A stretch of 63,501 bases of DNA, counting the filler, from Kipferlia bialata (Eukaryota): the NCBI GenBank assembly GCA_003568945.1. It is 3 parts of 3 records of this genome, joined end to end, with 100 filler letters (N's around TTAATTAATTAA, not from the genome) between each part and the next. Parts side by side here need not be neighbours in the genome. Positions count along the whole stretch, not along the records: positions 1 to 21,129 come from BDIP01000338.1; 2 more parts are not named here. The stretch is one strand, 5' to 3'. How positions within the stretch are numbered: the stretch's first letter is position 1; every line of letters starts with the position of its first letter. This document shows positions 97-32,800 of this stretch, piece by piece. The position numbers and the translations under genes were made by a program. Below the pieces are notes generated by a model, which did no database searches, was not told the origin of the DNA, and worked only from the letters and a program-made list of their open reading frames with translations.

Positions 97-159
97 ACCC
101 AGTCACCGGCAAGGAGTGCAGACAGGTATTGTAGTACATACATCCACACATATAGCTAG

Positions 160-202
<43 letters not shown>

Positions 203-271
203 AGAGGCAGAGAGACCCAGTCACCGGCAAGGAGTGCAGACAGGTAATTATATTCAATCTAGTGTATATAG

Positions 272-316
<45 letters not shown>

Positions 317-359
317 CCCAGTCACTGGCAAGGAGTGCAGACAGGTATAGAGGGATATG

Positions 360-412
<53 letters not shown>

Positions 413-650: not shown

Positions 651-3600
651 TATTGATATTGTTATAGTTATATATATTTACATCTGATATATACATACCT
701 GGACATTTCTGGGTTGTGATCCTTGTTGACCCCTCGTTGACCTCCCCTGACCCCTCTTTGACTCCTCCCTGACCCCCTCAGATTGCCCTGTTGACCAAGG
801 AGGAGAGGAGGATAGCCCATGATGTGGCCAGAGCCTTCAACCAGAGAGTGTGTGGGTTCGATATGCTGAGGTACACATGCTACTTTGTAATGGAAATTAT
901 GTTTCCATTGGTTTGTCTCATAACTGTAAGAGTTTCTCTCTCTTCACCTCTCTCTCCCTCTCTGTGCGTGTGTATGTGTATGTTACCTATGTATTTTATT
1001 ACCTACCCCCAGGACTGACACTGGCTCCTATGTATGTGGTGTATCTTTCTCTGCATAGATATACATGTGTGTATAAATATGTGAATTGCTATACTTCTCA
1101 CCCCCAGGACTGACACTGGCTCCTATGTCTGTGATGTCAACGGGTGGTCGTTTGTCAAGGTATGGGTATAATCTACGCATATTAGATGCACACTGTGTGT
1201 GATAGTATTGGACGTACCCATAGTGTTTGTATGCTATGTCTGTGATGTCAGCAGGTGGTCGTTTGTCAAGGTGTGTATGTATTGTATAATGGGTAAATAT
1301 ATTGTGGTGTATGTGTATGTATCGAGATGTTTGTGAATGTATTGTCATTGTTTGTTGTAACCCCAGGGCAACAAGCACTATTACGACCACTGTGGGAGGA
1401 TCCTGAGGTCCCTCATTCTGCAGGTACACACATATTGTATATTAATGTATTTATATTTATATATTCGGATATATTCATCAATGTATGTCCATGTTATTTT
1501 TGGATCACGAGGTCCCTCATTCAACCAGTTCATATTCTACTTACATTGGTTAATAATAGTAAATATATGTTTGCATTTCATAAGAATATGATCTCTATAA
1601 CTGCTAGGCCACCCGCCCTGCTGCCGATGTTGCACCCACAACATAGCTCATATTGTAGTGTATATATATATATATATATATATGTATATACTCTATGTAC
1701 ATATATATACCATTACCTCAGGCCACCCGCCCTGCTGCCGATGTTGCACCCAGGATCATGCCTCTGGAGAAGCCAATCCTGAGGTATATATACACATATT
1801 AATATATATACTTTTATATACTTATATATACTTATATATACTTATATATGGTATGTATATGTGATCTACCTCTTATATATAATGTACATACTCTATATGG
1901 CACCCAGGATCATGCCTCTGGAGAATCCAGTACTGAGGTATATATATACACAGTAAATGCAGAATCTTAATGAGTATAATTACTTGTTGATATGATACTC
2001 TCTCTACCCTCACCCCCAGGGGAGTTGCTGTCATAGTATGTATATATACTACATGGTATTAGCTAATATATGTTTATACTTCACTCTCCCTCTCACCCCC
2101 AGGGGAGTTGTTACTGTCATGAGACATGCTAGTAATCTACCGTCACATACTTATAATAATTCATTAATGGTATATACTAGATAGTAGCTGGTCTGTGGTG
2201 TATTGTAAATATGCATGGTCTCTACCCTTACCTAGTTATAAGTGGTGTAATGTATATATGGTACATTTGTTTATGTACTCACCCCCAGGGGAGTGGTTGC
2301 TGTCATGAGACACGCAGACAGAGCGCCAAAGCAGAAGAGGTGTGTAAACATGTTTGGATAGGCATGTGTAGACACTGATAATGGTACCTGTAATGGATAC
2401 GCATATGTATGTATTCCAACATGAGGTGTTCTCCTCCACCCTCTCTCTCCCTCTCTACATCTGTTCTCTATAGAATGTACCACCTACAGTCTACCCCTCT
2501 CTCTCTCGACACCCTAATTATGAAGGTAGTTCCGCACCAACAGTCTCTCTCTCTCTCCCCCTCTTCCTCTCTTCATTCTCATCATGTAGGAAGTTCCGCA
2601 CCACCAACAAGCGCTTCATAGAGATGCTGTCTGGAGGTACGTCCATTAGAGTGATGCATATATATACATAGAGTAGAATAATGTATGCTGTTGAAAGACA
2701 ATAAGTATGGTATATATGTATGTGTGTGTGTGTGTGTACACACTAACTCATCAGGCAAGGACACCACCGATGTCAATGTGGAGCTGAAGCCAGAGTACAA
2801 GGTATATATATTTCTATTTACTAATGCGTATATATAGTTATATGTGTATATTTTTTAGAAATATATAGACTACTGATACATACATTGGTAGTTTATCATA
2901 TCTCTCAGTCCGAGAGGTGTGCTGCGTTCGTAATGTATAGCATCTCAATACAGCAGTTTGAGTAGTATATGTGAATGTGTATTGTCATATATGCGTGTTA
3001 CTAATACCCCAGGCCGAGAGGTGTGCTGCCCTCCTGGCCCTGACCAGAGACATCATAGCCAATGACACACTCACAGGTATAGAGTGTATATGTATAGTAG
3101 TATATATGTAGTAGTATATGGATATAGTAGTATATATATGTATATGTATATATGCTGCCCTCCTGGCCCTGACCAGAGACATCATAGCCAATGACACATT
3201 GACAGGATAATGTCTCTACTCATATGTAAACACTGACAACCTATGTCCAGTATTAATTCAGACTTTACCATATATATTTTATTATGTGTGTGAATACGTG
3301 TCTTACTCCAGCTGATGAACGCACTGGCTTCAGGTCCCTGGCCACCATGCTGGCCAACAGCTGGAGTGGATCCAAGGTGGGTATATATATTACTTATTGA
3401 TATAGTATGTATAGTGTGTATATGTGTGTATATAGATAGTCCCGGGCCACCATGCTGGCAAACAGCTGGAGTGGAAGCAAGGTACCAGTAATTATTCAAT
3501 AGTATTTATAATGATATCTACTGCTGACCTCTCTTGACCTCCCTAGACCTCCCCTGACCATCCAGATCCAGATGAAGTCCTACAAGGGCAGGAGGGACGA

Positions 3601-6600
3601 TGTAGTGGTGGTGTGCAAGTGGGCAGGTATGTGTCTATATGTAGATGTAGATAATGAATGTGTATATGGACACATGGGTGTGCATATCTTCATTTTCATA
3701 AATATGTAAATATGTATATATTAATATCATGGTGTGCAAGTAGGCAGGTATGAGTATGTATATATGGGTGTGTGTATATATCTGACTATCCTATTTCTAT
3801 CCCTGACCTCTAGGCTTCCTGACCGTGGCAGGGCTCAGACAGGCATTCCAGGTAGATATGTCTATGCATACTCATATATGTATGTGTGACTGTACCTTAT
3901 GCGATATGTATATACACATGATGTCACCCAGACTCACCCCCAGTCTGGCAAGCAGCTCAGGAAGCAGCTGTTCCCAGGGAAGGTATGGTATTGTGTATGA
4001 GTACTCTCTCTACCGGTCATTTTCCAGCCTCAGTGTCCTTACGTCTGTACTTGAGAGTATTATGTGTGTCATATGTCTGAGTACCATACTTGTGTAGGTC
4101 CGTATACCTCCCTTTACCCCCCTTTACCCTAGGAAGGCAAGCAGCTGATCAGGGAGAGACTCAGAGTGTCACACAGCAGTGAGAGGAGGGTGACGAGGTG
4201 GGTGGATTAGTAAATTACTTGTGATACATATTTGATACATAAATATATATATTTACTGACCCCCATGACCGGCGAGGGTGTGCTGATGGGTCTGATTGAA
4301 CACTATACTATACATGTATGCGAATATACATAGATGTATATACATTAGTGTTTATACTTCATGAATACTGATCCTAGGACCGGTGAGGGTGTGCTCATGG
4401 GTCTGATAGATGAGGACACAGGGATAGACACCCTGCTACCACAGCTGCATGGGCTCAGGTGAAGTAATATATAAATATAAAGTGTATATATTCATGTATT
4501 AATGCATGTGAATATATATCATGATTGACACACTGCTGCCACAGCTGCATGGACTCAGGTGCATATACACCAGTATATATACATATATATATATGAATGT
4601 ATCACAATATATATAGAGAGAGAGACAGAAATGTGCTGGTATAGACAGCTCCATGAACTAAGGTACGTAGTCAACATATCTTTGATGCCCTGAGATCACA
4701 TTTCCATTATTTCCCTCTTTCCTTATATGTATACATATACATGCTAACTCTCTAGGTCCTGTGACCCCTGCTCCTGTATCCATCTTTGATGACCCTCTAT
4801 CTCTCACTCTATGTATTATTGTGTATATTATATATTGAATATACTATGTATACACACAATGTATCCCTAGATATTAAGGAGTTGTGACCCCTGTCCCTCC
4901 ATCTTCGATGCCAACACCAGTTCCCTCACACACACACACACTCTCTCTCTCTATATATATATGTATATATATGGTGTATAGACTAACCATGTAGGTCCTG
5001 TGACCCCTGCCCCTCCATCTTTGATGCCAACAACAGTTCTCTCACACACTCTCTCTCTCTTTATATATATAGTATGTATTCACTTACATTAGGTCGTGTG
5101 ACCCCTGCCCCTCCATCTTCGATGCCAACACACCCGAGGCAGACACAGAGGAACATAACCTGGAGGTGAGACTCATGAATGTATGGGAGAAGAAGATATA
5201 TATACATATAGAGAGAGAGAGAGAGAAGTAGTATATGACACCAGATGCAGACACAGAGAAGCATAACCTGGAGGTCAGTGGTGCATATGAAGTGGATATA
5301 TATATACGTATAATACGCCTTCTACAGTGGCAGATACAGAGGAACACAACTTGGAGGTGAGGCCTTTGTATGTGTTGACATACATTATTTTGACACAACA
5401 CAATATAAACACAACACAATATCCACTAATCCACTAATCCAATTGACACTCAGGAGTTCGAGGGCATCAGAGTGGTGGACCTGGCACCCAGACTCACGAG
5501 GTGTGTGGATATTTATTATGTATATATGATTATATGTATACTATTATATACATAGTATACCATTATATACCCATGTATATGAGAAAGTGTTTGTATTTAC
5601 CAAGAGTGGTGGACCTGGCACCCAGACTCACGAGGTGGGTATATATGTATATACAATATATATATATATCTATGAATATGAGTGAGTGGATACAGTTACA
5701 TTACAATTACCGCCTCACCCGAGGGCGAATGAGTTTGTCTTTACATAGTAAGTCATCATGTTAACATACTTCTTAGTAGCTATTAGTATACCTCACCCCC
5801 CAGAGCCAATGAGGTCGGACACTATTCAATCATATCCACTCAACAAATACATGTGTTATCATTCTCTATGTGTATAATAGATAGATGTCCCTCTCACCCA
5901 TATATAATGGATATAGATACCCCTCTCACCCCCAGAGCCAATGAGGTCGTGATGGCACTGTCAAAGCCAACCAGATCGGTGAGTCTCTCTCTCTCTCTCT
6001 CTCTTTGCATCCTTAAGTTCAGGCCATTCGTGCCAATATAAATACATTTATGATATATATAATTTCGTCTAAATATCTTAGGTATTAGGGCCAATGAGCA
6101 GGCCATGCATGATACAATGTACACATACATATGTGTGTATTTGTTATCTCCCTCTGAATATACTAACCATAGGCCATCCGAGCCAATGAGCAAGCCATGC
6201 ACGATGCCATTCTCATCTCTCTCTCTCTATGTATATGGTATATATATATAGATAGGAAGTGTATAATTGTTCTAACCATAGGCAATCAGGGCCAATGAGC
6301 AGGCCATGCACGATGTCATGATAACCTCTCTCTCTCTCTCTACATATATATATATGTATTATTATTCATTACTTATGCTAACCATAGGCTATTAGGGCCA
6401 ATGAGCAGGCCATGCACGATGCCATGGTGCAGAAGAGCTGCTCATCCACTGTCTCTAACCTGGATGATGTATCGGGGAGTGTCTACACAGACGCAACAGG
6501 AGCTACACTGCTAGGTATAGTGTATATTATATATATATACATATACTATTATACAGTCCTCACCCAGGCATCGGCCTCAGGTCTATATATATTCGCAATT

Positions 6601-9600
6601 AGTATAGTATCCCCCATGGAAATGTATATAGTATAATATATGTCGTATATTGTATACAGTATATTGTATAGTGTATATTGTATATAGTGTTTACCAACCT
6701 CACCCCCCAGGCATCGGCCTCAGCCAGATCAAGCACCCCCTGCTCAGAATCAGGTGGGTCCTTATATGTATATAGTGGTTCTACTAATTATTAATATGAC
6801 TAATTCAGGGGATATTCAGTGGCTGTCACTGTAATGGTGTGTATGTTCCACTATATATTGCATCAGTGGCTGTTATTGTATTGGGATCATACTTTACATA
6901 TCTCCCTGACCCTCAGGGCCCTCATCCTGCGCATCGACTGTCTCATTGAGGTGCTGCAGAACAAGGTACTGTCTCAGTATCAGTATCATCAGATACTGCA
7001 CTGATTCTCGCACTGGAGTTCTGTGTTGTATACATGGAGGTGAATTTGTATCTATTAATATTTAATTCCCAGGCCGTTGAGCACCCTGAGAACTGTGACT
7101 GGGCAGACATTGCAGAGAGGTATAGGGACACATACAGATAGACAGATATACATATTCGTACATCCACTTATACTAATATGTGTTATATATATGTGTGACT
7201 GGGCAGACATTGCAGAGAGGTATGTAGATAGTTATATATAGATAGTTATATACAGATAGATATACGTTTATCCACGTATATGTATGTGTGTTATATTAGT
7301 ATATACTGTGCAGATATTGCGGAGAGGTGTGTACATTCATATGTATAGATGGATATATGTATAGCCTACGTACACACACTTATGTATATGTGTGACTGGG
7401 CAGACATTGCAGAGAGGTATGGACATATACATATAGACAGATATATATATATTCGTACATCCACTTATATATATATATGTTATATGTATATGTGTGACTG
7501 GGCAGACATTGCAGAGAGGTACACAATTTGTATGAGGGTTACTATTATATATATGTATATTCATGAATTCATTACATGTGTATGCCTCTAACACCCAGAT
7601 GGGTAGAGTACAGGCAGGCCCTGCTGTCTGGTGATCTACCCGAGGTGTCACAGACGGCAGAGCTGGCAGAGAATGTCAGAACATCCAAGGTGAGTAGGAT
7701 GTAGTCAGACTATATCCATATAAGTATGTATAGTATTTTTATACTCACTCCCAGCCCCCTTTGATTCCGGAGGCTGCCGGATTATGTATATATGTTGTAT
7801 CTGTATATATATATACTATGTGTGTGGATTATTGTATATTATCACTCATTTCCAGCCCCCTTTGATCCTGGAGGCTGCCAGGTTATGTGTATATGTTGTA
7901 TCTGTATATATCTATATATATGCATATTAGAATATATATATATATTAGTGCATTGTATTCTAACCCCAGCTCCCTCTGATCCTGGAGGCTGCCAGGTTCG
8001 ATGCCACTCATATATACACATATATATATATGAATATATATATGATATAACTATATGTATATATACATGTATACTAACTCCCAGCTCCCTCTGATCCTGG
8101 AGGCTGCCAGGTTCGATGCGACCCACCACAACAGGATGCTCAGAGATCTACCAGGTATAGAGTATAATGATTATATATATATACAATAGATAGAATGCAT
8201 ATATTGATTGATGCCACCCACCACAACAGGATGCTCAGAGACTTGCCAGGTACATACCAATATATGTATAACTACGTATATACATGTGTATGTATGCATA
8301 TATTCTGATTAATTAACACTGAGGGACCTGCCAGGTATAATGTGAATATATAAATATATATGTATAACTATCATTGTGTATGATATACTCACACCAGAGT
8401 TCGATGAGGTCTTCAGAGGCGTCAAGGTGCTGGCTGACATCTGCATCCCCCAGTTCTTCGGCATCACAACGCGAGATAAGCTGCACATTGGACACCAGAT
8501 TGCTGCACCCCTATTAGACGCAGTTGTGGATGATATTGTGTCCATTGCACACCCTCCACAGAGGACAATCACTAGGTTTGATAGTGTCTATATGCACACA
8601 TGTTTTACTAGTGGTCTTTGGTGTATGCTACTAGAGCGTATATATTTGGGTACTATAATGTATCCTCATACTAGGCTGCGTGACAGACTGGACAGGAGCA
8701 GAGACTCCGCTGAGGCCATCGTGCCACCCCTGCCACCTACTGTGGGCAGTGTAGGTATGGATATGCATATATGACTTGTAGTATACTCTTATATACTATA
8801 TATATACAATGAGTATCTCTAGCGGCACTTACTCCAGGCACTAACCTCTCCACCTCTGCCCCCAACACTGCCACCTCTGTGTCCTCTATCAGCAGTGAGG
8901 GGGTGGCACTGTTTGGACCCCAGACACCCACTAGGCCTCATCAGGTATGTATGTGTTGATATGTGTGTATATATGCATTTCTATATTGAGTATGGGTGTA
9001 CAAAGAGTGAGTAGTAGAGTACTTACAGATTCAGTATATTAAGTGTGGACTCCTAACCTCAGGTCGGTGACTCCCCCCTCCTCTCCCCTGCCAACAGCCC
9101 CCCAAACAGAAGCCCCCCAGGCTCAGTTGTGAGGTACGCATATATATAGATTTATATAGATATAATCATATATATATATAATCATATATATATGTGCATA
9201 TAAGTAGGAAATGCCTTGTGTGTTATCCCACAAGCAGAGGTCCACTAGGCTCAGTGGTCAGGTACGCATATATAGTGACTATATTATAGTATATATAGTA
9301 TATTCGGTATATATATATATATATACGTATAGTCCACCCAGAAGAAGCCCCCCCAGGCTCAGTTGTCAGGTATGCTATTTCATGTATATATAATGACTAT
9401 GGTATATAATGCATTGTTGGGTGATGTTGTGTCGAGTTCCCTAAATAGTATATACTATATTGAATATGTACAAGCCGAAGCCCCCCAGGCTCAGTGGGAA
9501 GGTTGGCATAGTGACATGGATCATTGTATTGATAGAGTATGTTTGTTCGATATGTATGTATTATACTGCGTATACATACCAATTGTATTCTCTCTAAATC

Positions 9601-12600
9601 TATGGAGCAGGGTCTGAACCATGGCAAGTTCCTGGACAATGAACAACATGTATATCTATATATACTAGTCCATGAATACTTGCGTGTAGTCCAATCTATT
9701 ACTATATGCTAACTATAGGGAGCAGGGCCTCAACCATGGTAAGTTCCTGGGCAATGTGTGATACTTGTTCCATAAACCCTTGTACTATATATAAGGATAT
9801 ATATATATGCGTATATATGGGCGTATATATACTAATGCTAGGGAGCAGGGCCTTAATCATGGCAAGTTCCTGGGCAATATATGTTTTGTGTATATGTAGA
9901 AATGTAGATTGCATATAGTTCATTGTATGTAGTATAGTTCATTCAATTATATGCTAACTATAGGGAGCAGGGTCTGAACCATGGCAAGTTCCTGGGCAAG
10001 GCCAGGGTATACGTCACAGATGAGGCCCACATGCATGCCATGGTGAACCTACTCTCACTAGGTATTTTCTATTACATACAATTAGAGAGAGTGATGGATT
10101 TAGAGACAAAGAGGGAAACTCATGCGTGCTATGGTCGACCTATCTGTCTCCGGGTATATAGTAACTATGATATATTTGATATGCATATTTATATAGTGGC
10201 ACGGATACTGCTACTGACCCTTAGGCGGTCTCCCCGGCGTCCTCCTTGACCGTACTCTAATCGGTGAGCTCAACTGGCTCTCCTCCGTTGCATTCCAGCT
10301 GTTTGAGATCCCACACGCACCTGAGCACGCTAGGTATGGTAGTGCTATGCTGATAGAGATATACTTATGTTTATGCTACGCATGGTATTGTTCTATGTAT
10401 AGACTTACCATTGGCGGTTTGTGTGGGTGTTTCTCTTTCTCTCTCTCTGTGTATATAGTTATGTGTGTCTATGTATATTATATTTTTTTGATACATAATA
10501 TTCTATCCTCAAGTGGTTTGAGCGCTTGTTCACTCATCTCCTCTCTCTCAATGAATTGTCTCTTATCCCAGGTGGTTTGTGCGTGTGTTCCTCTCCTGTG
10601 GTTCCTCTGCCAACCCATTTGAAATGACAGCTGAGGACAACGTACTGCCAACGGACAGATACGAGGCGTGTATTGTATTCTATTTGTATACATGTTGATA
10701 TATCCACTAATAGCTAGGTCCTGATTGACGGTCTTCTCCTGCCACCCCTGAGGGAACTGTCACTGAGAGTACTGAGAGACAGGACAACACACAAGTATGT
10801 ACATGTATGCATAATAGAGGATCTAACGATGGGTTGTATGTATTTGCTCACCCCAGGGGTCATGCTGAGCTGATTGATAACTGATGTCATTTATCAATTC
10901 ACATTAATAGTACCTAGTGTGCACATAGTATGCAGTGAACAGTGTATAATACTCACGTCAGGGGCCATGCTGAGTTGATGGCTGTGATTGGTGTGTTCAG
11001 ACACGGAGACAGGACACCTAAGCAGGTATATATAGTTGTGTAATCAGTGTATATTTATATATATATATATATATATAGTCAGCATGCGTGATGTAATGAA
11101 GGGGTATCAGACACGGAGACAGAACACCGAAGCATATATGTGTGTATATAGTCAATATATATATAGTCAGTATCTCTCTCTCTCTTGGTCTACACCCTTT
11201 TACCATCCAGAAGTACAAGGTGTCTATCAAGGACCCAGCAGTCATACAGGAGATGTTCCCAGGTACTACTATAGCTATCTTTCAGTTAATTCTCTATATG
11301 TGTCTACATGTATATTTATACAATATTTCGTATTCATATGTCCACCGGTAGATTGTCTCTCTCTCTCTCCGCCTAGCCCTTATTTCCAGGTGTTGACCTT
11401 GATGCTGACTTTGAGGATCTGACTCTCAAGCCGCACTCGAAGCCCAAGGACATACCCACTTGTGAGAGGTGATTACAGTTGTATATATGGATAGATATAT
11501 TTTGATATATATAGTCACAGTATACTCCAAGCCCAAGGACATACCCACATGTGAGAGGTGATTGCATTAGTGTTAATATCAATACTAGGCCTGGTATTTT
11601 GTAGTGTATTTATGTGTTAATATATATACTCTGTATCAGTCACAGTATCCACTCCAAGCCCAAGGACATACCTACTTGTGAGAGGTGACTGCATTAGTGT
11701 TAATACATTATGATTACTATGTATTAGTGTTAGTATCAATATTCTGTATCACTCTTAAGCCACACTCCAAGCCGAAGGACATACCCACTTGTGAGAGGTG
11801 ATGGAGTTAGTAATGTTAATGCCTAATGATTTCATTAATAATACATTATCAGTACTAAGCCTAGTATTATGAATTAGTGTTAATAGCAATATTATGTATC
11901 AGTCACAGTATCCACTCCAAGCCCAAGGACATACCCACATGCGAGAGGTATTTAGTTGTATCTGTACATATATACACGTGACATGTGTAATGTATACAAT
12001 TGACTCCCAGGTTCCAGAGAGTGTTGAACCAGAACGCTGAGAGTCTGGCATCCAGTGAGAAGGTATCTCTACACTCACACTTCTAACAGTGCCAAAATAA
12101 TCACATATGAATTTGAGAGAGATAGCTTACCCTATATGCACATGCCAGCTTTGTGTAGTATCCTATGTCTTACATCCAGGAGAGAGAGAAGCTCCGTTTC
12201 TACGCCGACGTCATCATGAAGCCAATAGACAGCCTCAAGATTCAGGTACATAAGTTGTTAACCCAATTGAAGATGAGATGGCTGTAAACTCCTTCTCATT
12301 CCTAATCTGCCTTCTCCATCACAACTATAAGGATTGCTCTATGTTTGTATTACCTCACCTCCCAGGTCAAGGCCAGGAAGGGCACCCTGAGGCACGGCAT
12401 ACAGGTACAGTCTCTCTCTCTCTCTCTTCCACCACGTTTATGTGTGTGTAGCAATGTGTACTATTTATAATACATAGTTGTACACTAACCCTCCTCTTTC
12501 TCTCTCTACCCCTATGTATTTGTGTGGGTCTATGGGTGTGTGTCTTATATCTATTCTAACACCCAGATGATCATCAAGTTCGGTGGCATGCTGACCTCTC

Positions 12601-15600
12601 TCTCTCTATCTCTCTCTGTATATATATGTATTTGTTATATACTAGTGTGTGTATGTATATACATACCTACTTACACCCAGATGATCATCAAGTTCGGTGG
12701 CATGCTGACCACGGCAGGGGAGGAGCAGGTATGCATACTACCCATGTACATGGTTCATTAATGAAGTACTCCTCTATGTCCTATAGTCCTATAGTAGTAG
12801 ACTATTACTATAAATTATTAGTATATAAATTACTATATATGGAATGGCATGCTGACCACGGCAGGGGAGGAGCAGGTGTGGGATATACATGTATACTATG
12901 TATACTGTATACAGTGTGAGTGTATATGATTGGACCATCATCAATTTGTAATTATTGCATTTTCCATATTGTTGTATATACATGTATACATATATATATA
13001 TTCATCTCATCCCAGGCAGAGATGTGTGGGGGTCTCTTCCACCGCTTTGTCCTACCCTCAGACGACATTGAGAGGAGGACATTCCTCAGAAACGTCAAGT
13101 ATGGACTTACTATATATGTATGCTATACAGTTTTGTGTCTCTATGTACAAGTGTGGAAAAGTATTCTTGGAAAAGTATTCTTGCATTGAGAGGAGGACAT
13201 TCCTCAGAAACGTCAAGTGAGTGTTATACACATTGATACATCACTTTGTATTCAGTATGTGCCCTGTTCTATTCTAACGACAGGGTCTACTCCAATGACG
13301 AAGTGAGTTCAGTTATGTATACCCATTGAGACATACTACTACATATAGTAACACACCATAGTGTATTCTAATGGCAGGGTCTATTCCAATGACGAGAGGC
13401 GTGTGCAGGACACGGCAAAGACATTCCTATCAGTGCTCTATAGCAGTGAGGTAGGACTGTACTTCTATTATATTGTTCTATATATACAATGAAATATGTA
13501 TGTTTATACTTACCTCAGGACGATGAGGAGATCAGGGCCATGACACCCCCCATCAAGGAGGTGCAGCTGCTGTCACTGGTGGACAAGACTGCTAGGATCA
13601 GGTATCTTTGTGTCTATATAGATGATAGAGAGCTAAGGAGTATGTATATATATAGAGAGAGAGTATTGGGACGTGTATATTTTAGGATGGTTCAGCTGCT
13701 ATCACTGGTGGACAAGACAGCCAGGATCAGGTGTACTCATCTTTCAATATATATGTATGTGTGTATGTATGCATGTATATGTGATATATGCATTTTATGT
13801 ATACTCACCCCCAGGATGGAGGTTGAGAAGGAAATGTAGAGGAACTGTATGAAGTAGTATATAGTATATAGTATGTGTATGTATATATATATGGAGAACC
13901 TAACACCCAGGATGGAGGTGGACAAGTTGAAGAAGCTCGAATTGAATGTGATATCTGACTCATTAACGTATATGGTAGCTATGCTAATATGGATAACCTA
14001 ACTCCCAGGATGGAGGTTGAGAAGGACAAGCTCAACAAGGCACTCACATCGACATCAGATCTAGGTGAGAGACACGACAGTGTATATGTAGTTCTAACAT
14101 AGTATTCTTATATGTTAATGTATATGTATTGGGACAAGCTCAACAAGGCACTCACATCGACATCGGACCTGGGTATGTTAACAAAAACAGACAGATACAG
14201 CTATATACTCTTTCACTGGTATCTATACGTGTGTAGGTATTCGCCCCATACAATGACCGCAAGACCTTTGAAGCCCAGAACACCCATACATACACACATA
14301 ATAGTGTATATACGTTGTAAGTCTATGTATATGATCTCACTCTCAGGCGATGACCCCAAGACCATACATACATACATAAATACATATCTTACACACACAC
14401 ACACACATATATATATATCATTGTATATATACCTCACACAAAGGCGATGACCCCAAGACCATCGAGCCCCCCTTCACTCATACATACATACATGTCATAT
14501 ACATATTAATATATATATAAATCATTATATGAATACCTCACTCTCAGGCGATGACCCCAAGACCATCGAGCCCCCCGACACCTATGTCTTCATCTATTCA
14601 TATATGAATGCATATACCTCTACTGAAAGAGAGAGTATTCGTATCACTGTCTTTGACCCCCAGGCGATGACCCCAAGACCATTGAGCCCCCCGAGGCCAG
14701 GGAGCTGTTGAAGCTGAGCGGGGCAGTGGACTTTAGCCAAGTGGGGGTGCCTAATGATAGGTATATATATGTGTATAAGTNNNNNNNNNNNNNNNNNNNN
14801 NNNNNNNNNNNNNNNNNNNNNNNNNNNNNNNNNNNNNNNNNNNNNNNNNNNNNNNNNNNNNNNNNNNNNNNNNNNNNNNNNNNNNNNNNNNNNNNNAGAG
14901 AGAGAGAGAGAGAGAGAGAGAGCTGTTGAAGCTGAGTGGGGCTGTGGACTTCAGCCAAGTGGGGGTGCCCAATGATAGGTATGTGTGTATATATTATTAT
15001 ATATAGTGTGTATATACACTGAGAGAGAGAGAGAGAGAGAGAGAGAGTTGAAGCTGAGTGGAGCTGTGGACTTCAGCCAAGTGGGGGTGCCTAATGACAG
15101 GTGTGTGTATAGATTAGTAACACATTCTTTCATTATTGAGATAGAATACTGTTGAACATGTATATTTGCCTAGTATTATACTGTCAAATCTTCCAATATA
15201 CACATGTAGGCATACAAACACCAGGCTGAAGGAGCTCCACAAGCTGCTGCACAGATACATGCAGAAACTGGATGACCTCGTGCCACTGCTAGGTATGCCC
15301 TACTGTATAGTATTCATTACACATAGATTCTTGCATTGGGATGTGTTATAGCCCTTATCACATCACATGATTGCAAAGCAACTCCTTCGGGACATACTCC
15401 CTGGATATCTACATCTCCCTCTCTCTCTCTCTCTCTCCCCCTCTGATCCAGGCAACTCCTACAAACTGTGCTCCATGGAGACCCTGCTCATGGCAAGACT
15501 CAGACTCAGCAAGGTGAATATATATATAACTATTTCTGTATGGTTTCTGTAGTATTATTTTATATATATATATTTCAGAATGATATTGTTGACATATGTA

Positions 15601-18600
15601 CACTGGTCTGCTAATCCGTCAGGTCGTTGCCGACTTTGGGGGAGAGGAGGACTGGAACAATTACATACATACTAGCGCATCAGTCTTGCATATATACTGA
15701 GTACCCTATTCTTCTTCTCTGTCTCTTAATGTACCCTCTGATCCCTAGGTCGTTGCCGACTTTGGGGGTGAGGAGGAGGGCTGGAACGTGTCCAAGATAG
15801 GGGACGTCATTGACAACCTCAGGTATGTCTCTCTCTATGTGTGTATATATATACATATATATACATATGTTATACACTTGTATGATAACATATTGCCTCG
15901 TCATCGACCTCAGGTATGTATACGTAATTCATATTTAGATCAAAGTAATATATATATATATGTAGTTAGTTTTTGGTTATTTGTCTAACACCAGGTTTGA
16001 GATTCTGCACCATCGGCAGAGCTATCCCAACACAGTCAAGAGAACACTCAGGTATATTGTTATGTGTATGAATGAATATGTATATATATATATATACATA
16101 CGTATATGTATATATATGCATGGGAGTGAGAGAGAGGGAGTGAGAGACCTATCCCAACACAGTCAAGAGGACACTCAGGTATAGATGAACTAACTAATAT
16201 TTGAAAAGTCGATACTTACATGAAGAGATCGTAATGTGGATATCTTATCTCACTCCCATACAGTGTTGGGAGGTGTCATTCCTGATCAGTATAATATATT
16301 GCATTAACACATAATAGTGTAGACTTGGTGTTAAGTGAATATATATTCATATTCACTTATATTTGAATCCACAATATATATATCCACTCATCCCCAGGCA
16401 ATGTTGGGAGGTGTCCTTCCTGATCGGCCAGCTGTCACTCTCCCAGGTAGCCTCTCTCTCTCTCTCCCTCTACACCCTTATTGTCAGGAGTATGACATGA
16501 CACCCCACTCCAAGTACTCTCTCTCTCTCTCTCCCTCTACACCCTTAATATCAGGAGACGGTATGACCCCCCACTCCAAGTACTCTCTCTCTCTCTCTCT
16601 CTAGACCCATAACATCAGGAGTATGGTATGACCCCCCACTCCAAGTATGAGATTGGTGTTCTGACCAGTGAGTCCTTCCTCAGCGACATCATCATGGCCA
16701 TACAGAAGGCTGGGTTCTCAGCTAGGTTAGTACTATATACTATGTATTTTAATTACTAAATAGTATATACTATATGATATAGTATAGTGAGTCCTTCCTG
16801 AGTGACATCAACATGACTATTCAGAAGGCTGGATTCTCAGCTAGGTAATGCAGTTGTATATAGACATTCCACATTGACGCTGGTTGCTAATCATTCCATA
16901 GTCATTCAAGGGTATTGAGTGAATATTCATTGATGTATATATCCTGACCCCCAGACCTGAGATGCGCCTGTACTTTACCAGTGAGAGTCACCTGCACGGA
17001 CTGTACGTGGATGTGTATGCTAAATGCAATACATATACATGTACTAATCCAATGAACTACGGAAGTGGACTGTTCGTAGTTAGTATATAATTACTCATAG
17101 TGTATGTACAGTGTCAGTATCATGATACTTCTCACTTCAGGCTCAACATGCTCCTGTACTCAGACATCCCAGGCCTACAGGTACACATGTGTTGTATATC
17201 TACTCTAGTTATACAAATTACATATTCTATATACTACATTTCTCATCATTCTGAATCAATATGTGTGAATATATAGTCTCACCCCAGGTGGACAAGGCTA
17301 CCATCTTTGATGTCGATAGTATACGTACATACCTATTTATTGAATAGCAATCTTCCCCTTTATCTATATCTACTCACCCCAGGTCGACAGGGCCTCCATC
17401 ATCGACGTTATCATTATGTGAATTAGTTTTTATACTTTCTATTATGTATTATATAGTACATGTATTGAGAGAGAGAGAAAGAGAGTCTCACCCCAGGTCG
17501 ACAGGGCCTCCATCATCGATGTAGACTTCATGGCCCACCTGATCTTCAAGCTCTACTCGGTCTGGAGCACAGAGCTGTCACGCAATGTCTGGACAGTTGA
17601 GGTATGTGCACATCACATATATGAGTACTATTGTACATGTATTGGTGTCCACTACTTACCGTCAGGTCTTCTGGTCCTCTGGAGCGGCACACAACCCTTG
17701 GAAGGTGGGGATAAATATGCATAGATATTGTATACACAAGTATACATATACTGCACCTGGGGTGTACTGATTTATAGGCTGGGTTCCCTGGCCCAAGGAC
17801 CATTCACTATCTCTAGCGATATGCCATGCATACTGTCCTATGGATGTATTCTGCATATGTTAAGGATATACTGATAATTAGGTCGAGGCCGGGTTCCCTG
17901 GCTCTAGGATCCAGACCCCCCTCCTCATACACTCTGCCATCAGGACAACAGACCTCAAGAGGCTGAGGTATATGTATATATATATATATTGAGAGAGTGT
18001 AGTATATGTATAGTATGCATATACCCTCCTGATCCACTCTGCCATCAGGACAACAGACCTCAAGAGGCTGAGGTAGAGATTGTAGTGTACATCCCTATAT
18101 ATATAGTGATGTGTGTATATTGAGGGATAGTATATAGTATATAGTGTATAGTGTATTTATATGCTTTGCTGATCCACAGGACACCAGACTGTCAATATAT
18201 ATATATATAAATATATAGCATGCATTGACCTCAGGAGAGATGCCAAGTTCTGCCAATATATATATATATATATATCACCCCCCTTATCCCAGGAGAGATG
18301 CCAAGTTCTTTAGGGAGGCCACCAGACAGTGTGCTGATGAGGACGTGGACAGCAAGGTATACATTAGCAACATATATATGACACCTTACAAAGATACATT
18401 AGTGTCTGTTTCCGCTATATATGTATTAGTATACCCCTCACCCCAGGCCAAGGAGCATGCCCAGTCTGGATATATATGTGTGTCGCCTTACAATTAGCAT
18501 TAATATATGCATATATTTATATGTATGACATATATATATCCTATTGTACCCCTCACCCCCAGGCCAAGGAGCATGCCCAGTCTGGATATATATATATGTC

Positions 18601-20420
18601 ACCTTACAATTAGCATTAATATATGTATATATTAATATGTATGACATATATGTATCCTATTATGCCCCTCACCCCCAGGCCAAGGAGCATGCCCAGCAGC
18701 CTGGATATATATGTGTGTCACCTTACATATATATATATTATATGTATACATATATGTATATATGACTTATATATATACATACTCTAACCCCCCAGGCCAA
18801 GGAGCATGCCCAGCAGCCTGGGTACATGACGTTGATGAACAGGTATAGTGCATTGTGTATAGGAGGGTATTTGTATATTTATATAGAGAGAGAGCTAGAA
18901 TGATATACAATTTATCATTGTGGTTGGGTTCATGACATTGATGAGCAGGTAGAGCGGATATGCCTATGGGTTTTGCGTCAGTATATACATATATTACCTA
19001 ACCCCCTAGACAGCCCAACAAGTTCAAGGGCATCCAGGGCCAGTGGCCTCTGTCCAGCAAGTACGGTAGACCTGTCAGCGCCATCAGATCACTTGCCAGT
19101 CAGATCCACGAGATTAAGGTAATCATGACATCAATCATTGCATTTGCGGGTTCCAATCTATATATTTGACCAATCAGTTCTTTGATGAACGACAATCAGT
19201 TGTTTGATGAATTCTTTCTTTTCTCTTGTTTTAATATTCCAGGCCCACTCCCACAAGGGGAAGGGGAAGGGCAAGGGGAAGGGCAAGGCTGGGTGGGAGC
19301 GGAAGAGAGACAAGGAGAGGGAGAGAGAGAGGGAGAGAGACAAGAAGCAGAAGCAGAAGGAGGTGGATCCCACCCCTGCAGGTATGTGTGTCACCTGGTA
19401 TATACTAGTATATATTTATATATTATCTCTTGTCCTTGTGTATCACGGACTGTTAATAGTAGGCCTCGACCCCATTGAGATTCCTGTGTTGTGTGTGTAT
19501 ATATATAGCATGTATATATCTAATGTGCATATAATCTTAGATGCGTATATGTACTGACAGTAGGCCTAGACCCCATTGAGATGTCTATGTATATAAATAT
19601 GTATATATACCTATAGAGTCTATATATAGTAAGTATAGTATCAATGATTGCTTACAGTAGGCCTGGCCCCCATTGAGATGTCCCCCAGACAGAGGGAGAG
19701 AGAGAGAGAGAGAGAGAGGGCCAGGATGACTGCCTCCAACCCCATACTGGCCACTACTAAGTCCCAGTCACAGACACACACGAGACAGAACAGCATCACG
19801 GCACTCCCGCACTCCAGGTATACTTACATATATATATTTGTGTGTATATCTGCGATATAGTACGTAGAACGTACCTGACACCCCAGGCTGTGTGTCATTG
19901 GCGACATAGCAGACAGACTCGGAAGCCTCAAGGTAATGTTGTTGGAGTACTGGAATCAATGGCAGTGTATATGAGTTATTCTATGTATTATGTGTATTGT
20001 AATTATTGCAAACAGACATGGAATTATCAATGATCTATATGATACACTCTGCTCTAACTACCAAGGGGAACTTAAGCTAAGGAGACCAGAAATGGTACTC
20101 TTTTATGATTAGACGACTTGTACTCTTACACCCAGGGAGAACTGGAGCTGAGGAGAGAGGCCCACAAGAAGAGAACCACCCTGGCTGGGAGCGGCCTCAA
20201 CACTATCGAGGTGGGGATATGCATTCCATAATTTCTGACGATATATTTGTTCTGTGTACAAGCGTTATGATTGTTGCAGTTGTAATGTAAGATTATTGAA
20301 TGTTTATTTTCTCGCTGTATCACTATACTTATATGCGTGTATATGTACTGAGCTCAGGAGGGTGAGCAGAGTGGAGAGACAGATGGGGACGGCAAGGGAG
20401 ATACCGCCAAGACACTGTAA
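97..20420 (+). CDS. VIP1: Inositol hexakisphosphate/diphosphoinositol-pentakisphosphate kinase (PPIP5K/Vip1 family), multi-exon, 5'-partial; kinase domain followed by two histidine acid phosphatase-like domains
   Basis: Spliced exons give DPVTGKECRQ|IALLTKEERRIAHDVARAFNQRVCGFDMLR|TDTGSYVCDVNGWSFVK|GNKHYYDHCGRILR (Vip1 ATP-grasp kinase motifs). Then VAVMRHADRAPKQK (~2295-2340), KWAGFLT, SSERRV, RFDATHH, RVYVTDEAHMH (~10005), and again VIGVFRHGDRTPKQK (~10985-11025), IIKFGGMLTTAGEEQA, SNDERRVQDTA, SKIGDVIDNLRFEILHH, RLYFTSESHLH (~16965). Last exon EGEQSGETDGDGKGDTAKTL ends at TAA 20418-20420. Confidence 0.9.
14781..14896. other. Assembly gap (N run)
   Basis: Run of N inside an intron of the PPIP5K gene. 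Confidence 0.98.
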
Positions 20421-27693: not shown

Positions 27694-29386
27694 ATGTCCC
27701 AGGTATATACATGTGTATATATGACCATGTGAATGTGTTGCATTAGGGCATCGCAATCCTCTCAAACTGATGTGTGGTAAGTATATATATGGTAAGGCGT
27801 GAGTCTCTGTACGTGTATAGTGCACTCGTGTGTCACGTTTAGAGTCCGCTTTGGTATCAAGGCCTTTCTTATGTCTTATTCTCATTCATACGGACCTGCT
27901 CCCTTAACACCCAGGCTGCTACCTCGCCCAGGGCCAGGGGCAAGCCTCTCAAGGAGGTCACGGTCAGGTGTGCATGCACTATACCGTCTACCTCTCTGCC
28001 TCTCTACCCCTCTCCTGTCTGACCCCAGACTGTCCAGGGGCACTGAGCCCAGGGCCAGGAAGGGCATATCGGCAGAGGAGGAGGTATATAGATATATGTG
28101 TAAATATACAGGCACAGACTTGAAAACTCAGCTGACCCGATGTCAGTATTTCTCTCTCCCCTTCCTCACCCTCAGGCCGAGACCCCCATGTCTGTTCTGC
28201 TGTGTGACACCCCGGCACACTGTGTCTATGAGCAGCAGGTAGAGTGTCTCCCCTCTTCTCTGCACTACTCTATACCCCCCCCCCCCTCATCTCTTCATAT
28301 ATATGTATATCTACTCTCTACCTAGTGATACTGACCCCAGCCCCGTGTGTTCCTGCTGGATGGAGATGAGGCAGACTACATCACAGCCAGAAACACACTG
28401 TACGAGGAGACGGCTGCACAGTACATGAAGGAGGGGAATGTGCAGGTACCAGCCTCTTACACACTCTCTCCAGTAGCGATAACCTCTCTCCCCCTCACCC
28501 CCTAGAACCGAGGCGTGCAGACCAGGCGTCTGGCCACCAAGACCAAGAGAGTGGGGTCCAGGGCAGTCACCAGTGTGGAAGTGAGCACGATGGCCAGTAG
28601 GGCAGCCATTTATGACGCAAGGTACCATGTATAGATGTTTGTCAGTTAGTATACATACACTGACCCCCAGGAGTGAGGATGGCATTGTGGACATCCTGCC
28701 TGAGGGTGCAGCACCTGAGGAGGAGGCCGAGGGCGAGGCCGAGGGAGAGGGAGAGGGGGAGGAGGGCGAGGGAGATAGGCCTCCCAGCCCCAGTGGCACC
28801 ATCGCAGACACAGTCATCACAGGTGGGGCAGACTCTCTCTCTCTCTCTGTATATATATGCCGTCCTCTCAATAATTACTCTCTGACCCCCAGGCATCACT
28901 AGGTCTGAGACTGGGACTGAGATTGGGCCAGGGGGTGCAGCCTCTGTCTCTGAGTCTGCCATCACAAAGATCACAGACATATCAGTGGCACTCACTATGC
29001 AGGTACAGGGCATGGGAGACAGTATTTGTATAGGACAGTGGTGACCTAGCATATATGAATCACACACACACACTCTCTACCCCTTACCCCCCAGTCCCGT
29101 GTCCCTGGGAGTGGTGTGTCCACAGCGGTGGGGGGAGAGAGAACCACACAGAGGAGCCAGGCACAGATTGAGAGGTACGTTTTCTCTCTCTCTTCCTTCT
29201 TCCATTAGTATAATACTCTCTCTTTCTCTTAAGGGACCGCCACAACAAGTTCTCCCCTCTCGCTCCCTCTCATTCTTAACCTTTAGGGAGCGCCGCACGC
29301 TGTTCCGTTCCCCTGACTTTGTGCGTTCCCTCAGGCTCATGGAACTGCTATCCCTGGAGGGCACACTCAGACCAAAGACCATGAAG
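27694..29386 (+). CDS. Probable axonemal dynein intermediate chain (WDR78/DNAI4/IC138-like), N-terminal part only, multi-exon
   Basis: Spliced exons AETPMSVLLCDTP...GDEADYITARNTLYEE...NRGVQTRRLATKTKRVGSRAVTSVEVSTMASRAAIYDA and DFVRSLRLMELLSLEGTLRPK resemble, from memory, the WDR78 N-terminal blocks (EEAEKV..RN..Y, ER.MQT..K.K.VQ, AWD.YD, MER...EN..QPK). No WD40 domain follows; the frame runs into a poly-C tract. Start codon uncertain. Confidence 0.55.
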
Positions 29387-29660
29387 GTACGGTTTATATT
29401 GTATACATAGTATACCTAGTATACACCCTGAGTTGTCTTTCTACTTCTCACATAGCTGTTATGGTTCATACATAATACTCTCACATATTGTACCCCCCCC
29501 CCCCCCCCCCCCCTCTTTTTTTCCCCCCTCCCCCCCCCCCCCCCCCCCCTTTTTTGTCCCCCCCCCCCCCCCCCCCCTCTTTCTCTCCTTCTACTCTTAC
29601 TAACTATATTTGTCTACCTCACAACCTGGCGATTCTCTGCACCTTCTCTCCACAGCTCGT

Positions 29661-29700
<40 letters not shown>

Positions 29701-29820
29701 AAATATATCTAAATATTCTTAGCTGTTCTCATTCCCTCATACCAGGCCATGCTATCTCCTATATATTCTCTCTCTCTCCCCCTCTCTCTATATATGTACA
29801 TGTATCTTTCTCAATATCAG

Positions 29821-32800
29821 GCCATGCTCTCAACCTTCTCCCCCAAGCTCTTCGATGGGTGTACCGATGACCCAGATTATACAGACCCAGACACACTAGG
29901 TATGGGTATATACATATATACATATATAGTATATAGAATATATATACTCAATAGTATATATACTCTATAGTATAAATAATAGATACTCTTCGATGCGTGC
30001 ACTGATGACCCAGACTACACAGACCCAGACACACTGGGTATAACCATGTTGTATATTAGTATGATATGCATAGTATATATGTATATATACTATTTGGTAT
30101 ATATTGGTCTAATAGATACTCCTTGTGCCGATGACCCAGACTACACAGACCCAGACACGATAGGTATGGGTATAGTATAGTATCATTATATATTATATAT
30201 ATAGTATATCTAGTACATATAATATATCTAGAGATAGATACCAATTATACAGACCCAGACACACTAGGAATGGGTATATACATATATCATGTGTATTGCT
30301 CCCCCTTATGGTGTATACTCTACAATACCACTCTATATACATAGACCCAGATTATACAGACCCAGACACGCTAGGTATGAATATAGTGAATAGTGATTGA
30401 CTCTCTCGCAGCATAGATTTCCATACTTGTACTCTTCACTTCACAGGCCCAGACACCGTAGGCGCACCAATTACCTCTCTACTCCCTATTGGATATATCT
30501 CTCTCTTTTTGCAACACTCCACTCTAGTGTGCCTATTGCAGATCTCTGCTCTTTATGGTGCCTACCCCATCTCTCTCTCTCTCTCTCAATATATATATAT
30601 ATATATATCTATACTCATCATTAGTCTGTCCCCTCCAGATCCCTGCCCTCTATGGTGCCTACCTATCTCTCTCTCTCTCTCTCAATATATACTCATCATC
30701 AGTGTGTCCCCTCCAGATCCCCGCCCTCTATGGTGCCTACCCTCTGTCCTACATAGCACCTGAGGGGGTGGAGCATGAGACACCGTCCATTGCCACTACC
30801 AGAGCTCTAGAGGTATACATATATGTACTATCATCATAACTTACTCCATATACGTGCGGTTTCTTGAATGTTCTCTCTCTCTTGTTAGACTAGTAGTATA
30901 TCTGATCCCTTTGATTATCATCTCTGGTCTGTACCCATCAACATGGATCAAGTCTCTCTATCCTGTCTCCTCTTTCTCTCTCTCCCCCGCTCTCTCTCGT
31001 TAATGCATAAGATTGTGATGTCTGGTCTGTACCCCTCGATGTTTTGATGCTATCCTCTCTCTCTTCATTTATATCCTCTGTTTGAGGTGGGTATATATTG
31101 ACACTGATGCTAGATTGTCATGTCCGGTCTCTATCCCTCGGCCTGGATCAAGTCACTCCTCAGTGGTGGAGAGTATGACAGTGCCTCAAGGTGTGTACTA
31201 TTGGTATATATATTGTATGTATAGTATAGTATAGTATATGTACTCTTCAGATTATGTGCAATCATATGATTGAAGTTTAGATGTTAGTATTTTCTCTCTA
31301 TATCGGTTAATACTAGGTGCCAAGAAGGTGTATTATTGAATGCAGAATAATGACAGTTCTTACCGCAGGGCCAATGTCGTGTGTGCACTCACCCTCTGTG
31401 TAACTCTTCTGGGACTACTGGGTATGTACTCTTTTCCTTTCTCTGTCGATTGTGTCTCCCTTCAGTATATAGTGTCCTTTCTGACACATAGTTAATTACT
31501 GTGGGATTCTATGGCTATGTTACTGTATTAGAAGTGTGACTCTGTGTACGTGATAGTGGCTCTCGCTCTCTCTGTTCCTCCCTCACGCCAGCCGTATGGT
31601 TGTATACTAACTATGGGCCAAACGGAAACACTAGGAGGTACTTCTTTGCACATGCACAATCCCCTTTCTCTCTCTCTTTCTCTCTGACGCATACTGTCTC
31701 TTGTCAACTGGTGTCTCCTCTGTTCTATAAACATGAAATATGCATATCTGCACCTTCACCCTTAGGCTTCTAAGGGACTGTTTCCGGTGGGTCGATACGT
31801 CCAAGTCTTCCATGGTCAATGTCACAAAGGTATATGTGGCAGTACGCTAGTATTCATATGTGCCCAAGACTCTGTAAGAGACACAATGTGAGTCACGTAT
31901 TACACATACACTCAGGATCTATGGCCGATATCGTTTGAAGAGTCCCTGAATATACGAATCAATGTATATACGTGTGTATATAGTAGAGTATCTCACTGCC
32001 AGGTCTATGGCCGGTATGGCATGAAGAGGCGCAATGAGGGGGATGAATACATCGACAACGAGTACAGAGGGACGATCATGGGTATGTGGTATCGACCAGT
32101 GTCGCTCTCTCTCTGCAATACCATACACCTTACCATATGTGTCAAGGGTGTGTGGTATTGGTCAGTGTGCTCTGCGTCAGTCCTAATGTATCTCTCTCTC
32201 TCTTTTCATCTCTCTTTAGAACTGTATGACTGTTTACATGTGTAGTAATATTCTAAGTCTCAGGCGGCTTTGTGACGAGTGTCTCTCTCTCTTTCTCCCT
32301 CTGACTATGTATGAGTATGGACATGTATAAGCACCTAAGTTCAGGCGGCTGTGTTACCAGTGTGCTCTATGTCATAGCTGCATTCACAGCTGTATGGACA
32401 CTGTATGTGTGCATGCACACTGACGCCATACCAACACTCCCAGAGGATATATACACAGGTGGGGTATATACTACCACTGATACCAACACACGCCACTGAT
32501 ATAGTCACTCCATCATTTGGCCTTTGGTGGATCCGCTACCTGAATATACGTATAACTGTTGTTATTCTTTCCCATATCTCAGTGTATATATATGTCTTAT
32601 ATTCCTGTCAGTAAATATTTGTATACGTATCTAACACACAGAGCTGACCCCCGACCAGCCCCCCTATCTGCGACAGAGGGATGTGCAGACAGTGCCATAC
32701 ACATCACTCCCAACAGAGCCTGGGCAGTACCTGAGTATGTGTAGTATAGTACAATTGAATATATAGAAGTATCATTGTCTTAATGCTATTGCCCTCCATT

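Follow-up and report, generated by a model that had tools for sequence, protein, structure and literature searches.

The analyzed introns of Kipferlia bialata, a free-living protist, contain short copies of the adjoining exon edges that differ from the exon mostly at silent positions. This arrangement, hereafter termed echoes, was confirmed as general across the examined introns, nearly half of which are affected. Every statistic was drawn from one 63.5 kb window, i.e., the whole stretch of DNA that was analyzed.

Arrangement of the echoes

A total of 120 echoes were detected beside the 162 exons of the eight genes of the window, and 69 of the 154 introns carried them, on donor and acceptor sides alike. 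Each echo lay on the side of the edge that it copies (120/120), copies of exon starts being upstream and copies of exon ends downstream. An echo covers a median of 31 nt and a single splice site, the AG or GT being retained in 102 of the 120; the spacing is ∼108 nt, and arrays contain up to four echoes. The median intron length was 276 nt with echoes vs 112 nt, showing that the process more than doubles intron length. The counts exclude the array at 60–650 and the pair at 42466–42671, where the true exon lies outside the scaffold, and also echoes scoring <14 or containing gaps.

Inverted echoes were absent from the window, no exon matched a non-adjacent intron among the ∼12% of 3,481 pairs drawn at random, and direct repeats confined to the intron were present in 2 of 85 echo-free introns. 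Flanks from different loci, which formed the background set, scored low, with no repeat family evident in this window. One echo of gene C (38899–38944) reproduces the final part of the last coding exon and terminates at the stop codon instead of at a splice site. Echoes on both sides were found for 16 exons vs 11.1 expected (P = 0.07), and the upstream and downstream echoes of these 16 exons tiled more closely than by chance (misfit of 10.9 vs 18.9/15.1 nt; P = 0.0003/0.03).

The individual arrays listed in Table 1 belong to gene A, whose product contains a RimK-like ATP-grasp domain (C-terminal part) and two His_Phos_2 stretches. The model of gene A is the same as P0001 apart from four small indels, and its reading frames agree with P0001 and with the RNA-like contig described below. 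Genes B–H are our own models, on which their reading frames depend.

Table 1. Genes and echo arrays of the window
Feature	Position	Strand	Remarks
VIP1/PPIP5K-like gene (gene A)	782..20420	+	62 exons modelled; 66 echoes; 5' end beyond scaffold
Upstream echoes 6083-6113, 6173-6210 and 6282-6320 of exon 18 start (6388-6514)	6083..6426	+	
Exon 21 end and three downstream echoes (7194, 7391, 7493)	7094..7518	+	Shorter copy at ~7310 under threshold
Exon 28 start and three upstream echoes	9604..9999	+	All stop at one exon base; most distal without AG
Exon 34 end and four downstream echoes	11422..11947	+	GT in each; all differences silent
Exon 41 end and downstream echo 13689-13730	13560..13730	+	Four silent differences
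Exon 43 (14664-14760) array	14347..15100	+	Three upstream echoes; downstream echoes 14920-14978 and 15047-15100
Exon 49 (16619-16725) array	16488..16844	+	Two upstream echoes; downstream echo 16786-16844
Gene B	27915..38291	+	Second scaffold; model without RNA check; 24 echoes; 49 silent, 17 replacement
Gene C	38899..42090	-	Own model; 8 echoes; 22 silent, 8 replacement
Gene H	57376..63339	+	Third scaffold; own model; 12 echoes; 13 silent, 4 replacement

Silent excess and presence in DNA

The 120 echoes differed from their exons at 259 sites, 196 silent and 63 replacement, and 198 of the 259 fell at codon position 3. The pN/pS ratio was 0.12–0.13 between exon and echo and 0.11 between echoes, where 58.5 of 75 differences (78%) were silent. 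If a copy was dead from birth and only its exon is constrained, pN/pS against the exon is expected to be ∼0.5 or more, and ∼1 is expected between two dead copies; the corresponding silent share of exon–echo differences is ∼42% by formula and 0.39–0.43 when simulated through the detector. The observed share was 74–76% (131 of 177 differences in the 85 nearest echoes; P ∼ 1e-17), and it was replicated outside gene A (92/126) and between echoes, the exceptions being gene G (1/4) and gene F (1/2). Permutation preserving the trinucleotide context gave 57 ± 6 silent changes (maximum 77 in 20,000) vs 127/173 observed, which rules out context-dependent mutation bias as the cause; detector bias was ruled out by the simulation.

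The first-pass annotation had proposed, from a few copies, that the echoes diverged under coding constraint. The silent differences it named were borne out on codon reading for 13561 vs 13690 (GTG/GTT, CTG/CTA, ACT/ACA, GCT/GCC) and for 14711/14929/15051 (AGC/AGT, GGG/GGA, GCA/GCT, TTT/TTC, CCT/CCC, GAT/GAC). In the copies at 6173/6282/6388, AIR is encoded in all and CAA/CAG alternate as described, but the 6282 copy has an unlisted A>V replacement; four silent and two replacement codons do separate 16667–16725 from 16786–16844, with the exon ending at 16725 and not at 16724. These cases had not been cherry-picked, as the 37 echoes within 6080–16845 had 56 distinct silent changes and 8 distinct replacements, in line with the window-wide count. 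The pooled codon-position test that it called for likewise gave uneven spread. Its premise that neutral decay ignores codon position was too simple, since a constrained exon alone gives ∼42% silent changes; the exon–echo and echo–echo shares lie far above this value, and constraint during divergence is thus upheld.

Third-position divergence was uniform among 85 echoes, with a dispersion of 0.97; the expected values were 0.91 under a fixed distance, 1.41 under exponentially distributed ages (P = 0.005), and 1.22 under uniformly distributed ages (P = 0.035). Within arrays, the divergence between echoes (0.053–0.087) was similar to that between echo and exon (0.060–0.073), and four silent sites showed three states. 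Silent changes were symmetric (GC>AT 74, AT>GC 60) and GC3 was retained (0.686 vs 0.695). Replacements tilted toward GC>AT (31 vs 17; P = 0.06), showed no conservative tendency relative to random changes (BLOSUM −0.58 vs −0.63), and included one stop. Private replacements were more frequent in the most distant copy (11 vs 2; P = 0.02), which indicates that new units come in beside the exon. A simple frozen-snapshot ladder was ruled out because the nearest copy had 17 private silent sites. Compared with silent changes, replacements were a little more distant from the splice site (as a fraction of echo length, 0.51 vs 0.42; P = 0.03, all pairs).

The intron flanks were mostly at background similarity, with homology kept in a minority (22/106). 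The proportion of exon–echo flanks that exceeded the controls' 95th percentile varied with the control and pair set (9/74, 7/66, and 22/106), and for flanks beside identical exon parts it was 3/18, where 20% divergence would give 94%. Where the intron flanks of copies were similar, the exon parts were only slightly nearer to each other (0.058 vs 0.077; a trend, with a Spearman P of 0.10). The innermost 3–6 echo bases resembled intron sequence more than simulated blunt joins did (P = 0.008–0.035), an indirect proxy for microhomology.

The echoes are real genomic copies. DNA contigs from run X1, the longest being 1,544 nt, bridged exon–echo arrays with zero differences at a depth of 409–481, and echo-rich pieces had the same depth as exon-rich ones (16 pieces listed); run X1 is possibly the source of this assembly and hence not independent. 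A single DNA contig covers 16612–17402, including the exon 49 array, with zero differences. An assembly gap (N, 14781–14896) separates exon 43 from its first downstream echo, and none of the contigs listed crosses it. Contigs from run X2 were tentatively taken as RNA, not by record, and behave like mRNA; bins without X2 cover were left unused. The RNA-like contig was equal to the real exons in 16/16 listed pieces with zero differences, and no echo bases occurred in these pieces, which represent the main form as contigs hide minor isoforms. Alternative letters were absent at covered exons in either run, in contigs that drop rare variants and hide heterozygous sites. Present use in mRNA, one of the options in the first-pass annotation, thus finds no support in the main form, and the replacements also look random.

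Origin of the echoes

On balance, we favor the reading that the echoes were already diverged when they formed: each would be the edge of a once-working allele, displaced during break repair or unequal exchange with a diverged homologue. The introns would then document earlier genetic exchange. A break within a short exon would be followed by invasion of the homologue via the exon, the sole good homology, and by copying of ∼110 nt, past one splice site and on into the intron of the homologue. If re-annealing failed, the extended end could be joined to the other end by microhomology, probably by polymerase theta. The homologue's exon edge, with a piece of its intron, would then take the working position and the old edge would end in the intron. 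Unequal exchange between an echo and the homologue's exon would lengthen or shorten arrays, and only products with a single splice site would keep the mRNA intact. On this view, silent differences would reflect the distance between alleles when an echo formed (at least ∼0.14 per silent site), and replacements would reflect neutral decay thereafter.

Besides the silent share, this displacement of allele edges is favored by the uniform third-position divergence, the symmetric silent changes with GC3 kept, the random, GC>AT-leaning replacements concentrated in the farthest copy, the background similarity of most intron flanks, the scarcity of intron-only direct repeats, the echo ending at a stop codon, and the weakly intron-like junction bases. 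PolQ and Spo11 are listed for K. bialata and Ku70 is not, as far as the available part of the source extends (PMC8516963), and duplications from failed synthesis in Caenorhabditis elegans (see below) point the same way. Since no donor allele was seen in the contigs, and one weak protein search returned P0001 alone among 11 candidates, we infer the displacement route, as well as the donor alleles and the selective filter. Also counting against it, near-unalignable allelic introns are required together with just 15–20% silent difference, the congruence of flanks and exon parts is slight, the microhomology test is indirect, and the ∼110 nt unit is unexplained. Sex has never been observed in metamonads, and genes B–H rest on our own models. 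A single event, in which a new exon was inserted within the old one and the halves were left as echoes, was rejected as the general model because many exons have one-sided echoes; the tight tiling fits it, but independent breaks account for the tiling, and such an insertion may apply to some exons.

Among the other readings, ordinary dead tandem duplications with silent bias from exon selection alone seem scarcely credible. The geometry would fit duplications filtered to one splice site, but this reading predicts 39–43% silent exon–echo and ∼28% silent echo–echo differences, as well as alignable flanks beside identical exon parts, and it is rejected given correct reading frames, which in gene A have outside agreement. 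That pieces of different haplotypes were strung in tandem by the assembly is equally improbable. The scaffolds are short-read with gaps, the species is said to be probably diploid (PMC5874029), and X1 is perhaps not independent; however, separately assembled contigs bridge the arrays at exon-equal depth, four distinct echoes per array exceed two haplotypes, and decay is visible in distal copies. The haplotype-merging concern of the first-pass annotation is accordingly unsupported, and among its options the best fit is the capture of fragments from divergent alleles, with exon edges replaced serially; its interpretation is thus borne out in part.

Capture in the same manner, but from donors in a second subgenome or in gene copies that were left by past hybridization or genome doubling and later lost or homogenized, and not from alleles of a living, highly diverse population, is unlikely, even though the silent distance is uniform over echoes and the contigs lack a second haplotype: the within-array divergence, similar to that from the exon, and the three-state silent sites suggest more than two donors, and the greater age of distal copies implies capture spread through time. 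Slightly less probable is that the echoes are self-templated duplications kept by selection for use, as minor splice forms or as donors rebuilding the exon. The low pN/pS, the retained AG or GT, and the tiling on both sides are in its favor. Each echo has just one splice site, however, the real exons are what the RNA-like contig joins, the replacements look random, with a stop among them, and copies identical at birth but of varied age should be over-dispersed; by our own argument, exon–echo conversion on the same haplotype cannot lower pN/pS under ∼0.5, and tiling is also expected if breaks fall anywhere within short exons. To about the same low degree, old tandem duplications whose intron halves decayed while the exon halves were overwritten by conversion from diverse alleles, with no end-joining, could be considered. 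This reading likewise predicts the silent excess and flanks that do not align, and the slightly distal position of replacements agrees with it, but conversion over ∼30 nt of homology is needed, the sharp shared inner ends and the distal excess of replacements are not explained by it alone, and diverged alleles are still required.

Comparison with known systems and implications

Tandem exon duplication with mutually exclusive splicing involves whole exons with both splice sites, and AGGT duplication makes a new intron out of exon sequence. Neighboring exon copies diverge at silent sites in the former as in Kipferlia, but the echoes are partial, and none of those in the window was a whole exon with acceptor and donor. 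Nor was a duplicated stretch turned into a new GT–AG intron, as the mRNA-like contig, whose coordinates run on without a break, joins the proximal donor to the proximal acceptor across echoes; existing introns are lengthened and intron number is constant, whereas AGGT duplication adds an intron. Intron gain through AGGT-site tandem duplication, the topic of PMC3265369, is alike in that a local duplication includes splice signals.

In the sections available for human F7, intron 7 contains a 37-bp VNTR with silent 5' pseudo-sites, in which the unit crosses the exon–intron boundary and splicing relies on the first donor alone (PMC1557585). The echoes likewise span the border (120/120 sides), with the real exons used in the RNA-like contig. 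In contrast, the F7 repeat is described there as one locus with identical donors, while in Kipferlia 69/154 introns are affected, on both sides, with ∼108 nt units whose intron halves are dissimilar and exon halves silent-biased; the flank comparisons did not show units alike over their whole length. The accessible account of C. elegans helq-1 reports tandem duplications from failed SDSA intermediates and polymerase-theta joining (PMC8654963). The proposed likeness is an end extended on a template and end-joined, giving direct repeats with microhomology. There, however, the sister serves as template, and the copies are identical, with a median of ∼1 kb, in mutants, whereas the Kipferlia copies seem born diverged, ∼110 nt in size, and fixed in a natural isolate. 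No description of Kipferlia exon-edge echoes was found in the literature searched, which covered few subscription journals and the genome paper in part.

It is quite possible, though a little short of probable, that Kipferlia, without classical end-joining, routinely swaps exon edges with strongly diverged homologues and leaves the old edge in the intron. If so, allele fragments in the genome would number ∼100,000 and amount to an internal sample of the population, with silent diversity of ∼0.15–0.2, and would give direct evidence of outcrossing where sex has never been seen. A mutational process tied to Ku-less break repair would be a main engine of intron growth. The spliceosome is reduced, with 87/174 proteins found according to the part of the source at hand (PMC6679479), and it picks the exon-proximal site among near-identical donors or acceptors, which makes the echoes a natural test set for splice-site choice. 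At the practical level, gene prediction can be misled by echoes; the gene finder used here predicted several of them as exons.

Exon-edge echoes in gene A and seven other genes

The VIP1/PPIP5K-like gene (gene A) was modelled as 62 exons in a single open frame. A search with exon 8400-8573 as query matched only one protein among 11 candidates, P0001 from Kipferlia bialata (1,484 aa; annotated as histidine phosphatase clade 2; on a contig of 21,129 nt), and the gene A product was identical to it save four small indels. Pfam analysis of the product revealed a partial RimK-like ATP-grasp domain and two His_Phos_2 stretches, an architecture that we take to be VIP1/PPIP5K-like. The catalytic motif is RHADRAP in the first of the two tandem histidine-phosphatase domains and RHGDRTP in the second. 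The boundary of a modelled 52-nt intron with a GC donor (10665-10718) is uncertain because P0001 differs by 8 residues there.

An ungapped scan of every exon of gene A against its flanking introns identified 66 echoes, i.e., short intronic copies of the adjoining exon's edge, and a ∼12% sample of the 3,481 pairs of exon and non-adjacent intron showed none. The seven other genes were modelled, with hand curation and without an RNA check, by a small gene finder trained on gene A, which recovered 57 of its 62 exons. Altogether, 120 echoes were found at 85 edges of 162 exons, occupying 69 of 154 introns. Upstream echoes copy the exon start (60/60) and downstream echoes the exon end (60/60); none of the 120 is inverted, and AG or GT is retained in 102. 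The echo units, consisting of ∼31 nt of exon and ∼75 nt of intron-like DNA, are spaced at a median of 108 nt (IQR 97-122, n = 108 units). Median intron length is 276 nt with echoes versus 112 nt without, and in several arrays the segment lying farthest out is in itself a normal, complete intron (63-90 nt). Of the 85 introns without echoes, only 2 contained intron-only repeats. Each of the six exon-end copies near the window's start is entered via a GA run continuing into exon sequence. The echo that ends past a stop codon shows one silent and three replacement differences.

The K. bialata genome is a 51 Mb short-read assembly with 124,912 introns and is probably diploid; the passages covered of the genome paper leave duplications unmentioned and use 'repeat' only in unrelated senses (PMC5874029). 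Provided that the window's genes are typical, the ratio of 120 echoes to 154 introns would imply ∼97,000 echoes genome-wide.

Silent excess, presence in DNA contigs and absence from the RNA-like contig

For a copy dead from birth, i.e., without constraint from the start beside a constrained exon, ∼42% of differences are calculated to be silent (0.39-0.43 when simulated through the detector), since silent sites diverge twice as fast as others from a constrained exon. The first-pass annotation had proposed that the echoes were under coding constraint while diverging, and this is supported by the 131 silent differences among 177 at the nearest echo per edge (P 1e-17) and by an overall exon-echo pN/pS of 0.12-0.13. 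The silent share was 196/259 for all exon-echo pairs, 174/236 for distinct differences, 56/64 within the annotated span of gene A (6080-16845) and 92/126 outside gene A. Comparison of echo with echo in 23 arrays gave 58.5/75 silent (pN/pS 0.11), the silent share exceeded 42% in 53 of the 64 nearest echoes that differ at all from their exon, and trinucleotide-preserving permutation predicted 57 ± 6 silent against 127/173 observed. The bias was absent from genes F and G, which hold six differences in all. Codon reading of the four exon/echo cases originally named agreed with their description, apart from a replacement that had been passed over and a single end coordinate.

The echoes are real DNA and appear to be left out of the mRNA. 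Contigs of X1, a DNA run flagged as a possible source of the window's DNA, bridge exon-echo arrays (8090-9633 and 16612-17402 included) with no differing letters at a depth of 409-481 (16 pieces, among the matches listed), and a misassembly origin of the echoes is highly improbable. One 4,939-nt contig of X2, a run that is RNA by guess, showed no difference to the real exons in 16/16 pieces among the matches listed; its coordinates are contiguous on them, and therefore the echoes are skipped. Contigs conceal rare forms and small heterozygosity in both comparisons. That the echoes serve a present function is unlikely.

Origin of the divergence

Silent changes go both ways (74 vs. 60) with GC3 unchanged. 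Replacements are skewed GC>AT (31 vs. 17, P 0.06) and score on BLOSUM as random changes do, with one stop against 2.3 expected. In arrays, the farthest copy holds 11 private replacements and 26 private silent sites versus 2 and 17 in the nearest. The 85 echoes vary in third-position divergence no more than expected for a fixed distance (overall chi-square 71.7 on 84 df), and less than expected for ages distributed exponentially (P 0.005) or uniformly (P 0.035). Intron flanks mostly resemble each other as unrelated introns do, exceeding the 95th percentile in 9/74, 7/66 and 22/106 pairs (three set-ups); 94% of pairs would be expected above it after 20% substitution and two indels. Owing to this evenness, the unlike flanks and the random replacements, each echo appears to carry from its origin a similar load of silent differences and a flank that looks foreign yet related, and to decay neutrally thereafter. 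The starting load would be at least ∼0.14 per silent site, from pS minus twice pN (0.184 - 0.048).

Displaced alleles are the most likely reading, favored by a modest measure, and the three readings requiring diverged working donors are, jointly, quite probable. We infer displacement of an allele's edge through homologue copying and joining. In a diverse population, two working alleles would differ silently in exons and widely in introns, which is the relation of exon to echo. A break within a short exon could be extended on the homologue over one splice site and then joined to the opposite end. The exon edge and some intron sequence of the homologue would come to occupy the working position, leaving the old edge, together with its entire intron, as the echo. 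Products that span an entire exon or an entire intron would harm the mRNA and be lost. Hints in support are the rarity of intron-only repeats, the echo ending at a stop codon, junction bases that are weakly intron-like, and the repair-gene content. According to the parts covered of one survey, NHEJ is absent from metamonads and Rad51A from fornicates, and its supplement rows covered list PolQ and Spo11 for K. bialata and have none for Ku70 in this species (PMC8516963). In C. elegans, failed SDSA intermediates are joined into tandem duplications, as stated in the portion covered of PMC8654963. Counting against the mechanism, neither the X1/X2 contigs nor the 11 protein candidates revealed a donor allele or paralogue, and intron-exon congruence is a trend only. 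The mechanism would rest on highly divergent allelic introns and does not account for the ∼110-nt unit size.

Introns born by duplication are already known from the literature covered in part, and F7 intron 7 carries junction-spanning repeats with silent pseudo-sites (PMC1557585, part covered). The Kipferlia echoes are unlike F7-type repeats in that their units are not homogeneous, and unlike dead duplicated copies in their pN/pS ratio. No account of exon-edge echoes in Kipferlia, or of exon-edge allele capture, was found in the open-access literature searched.

Other features of the window

Features of the window and their coordinates
Feature	Coordinates	Strand	Remark
Scaffold parts	1-21129, 21230-42351, 42452-63501		N-linkers between
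Gene A	782-20420	+	
Exon-end copies	60-650		six copies of one exon end; real exon off scaffold
Last-coding-exon echo	38899-38944	-	ends just past stop codon, in presumed 3' UTR
Actin-related protein gene	51424-53617		presumably Arp2-like, by motifs; three echoes
Two multi-pass membrane protein genes	39015-42090, 54900-56860	-	presumably resemble cAMP-receptor-type GPCRs
tRNA-like sequences	38400-38610	-	between genes B and C
Intron-poor genes	21700-26200	both	several; no echoes

The intron-poor genes share similar C-terminal motifs (e.g., near 22640 and 25440) and are possibly a Kelch-like family. Intron acceptors in the window mostly read CTVAC followed by three or four bases and YAG, presumably with the branch point merged into the 3' splice site, an arrangement known from Giardia and Trichomonas.
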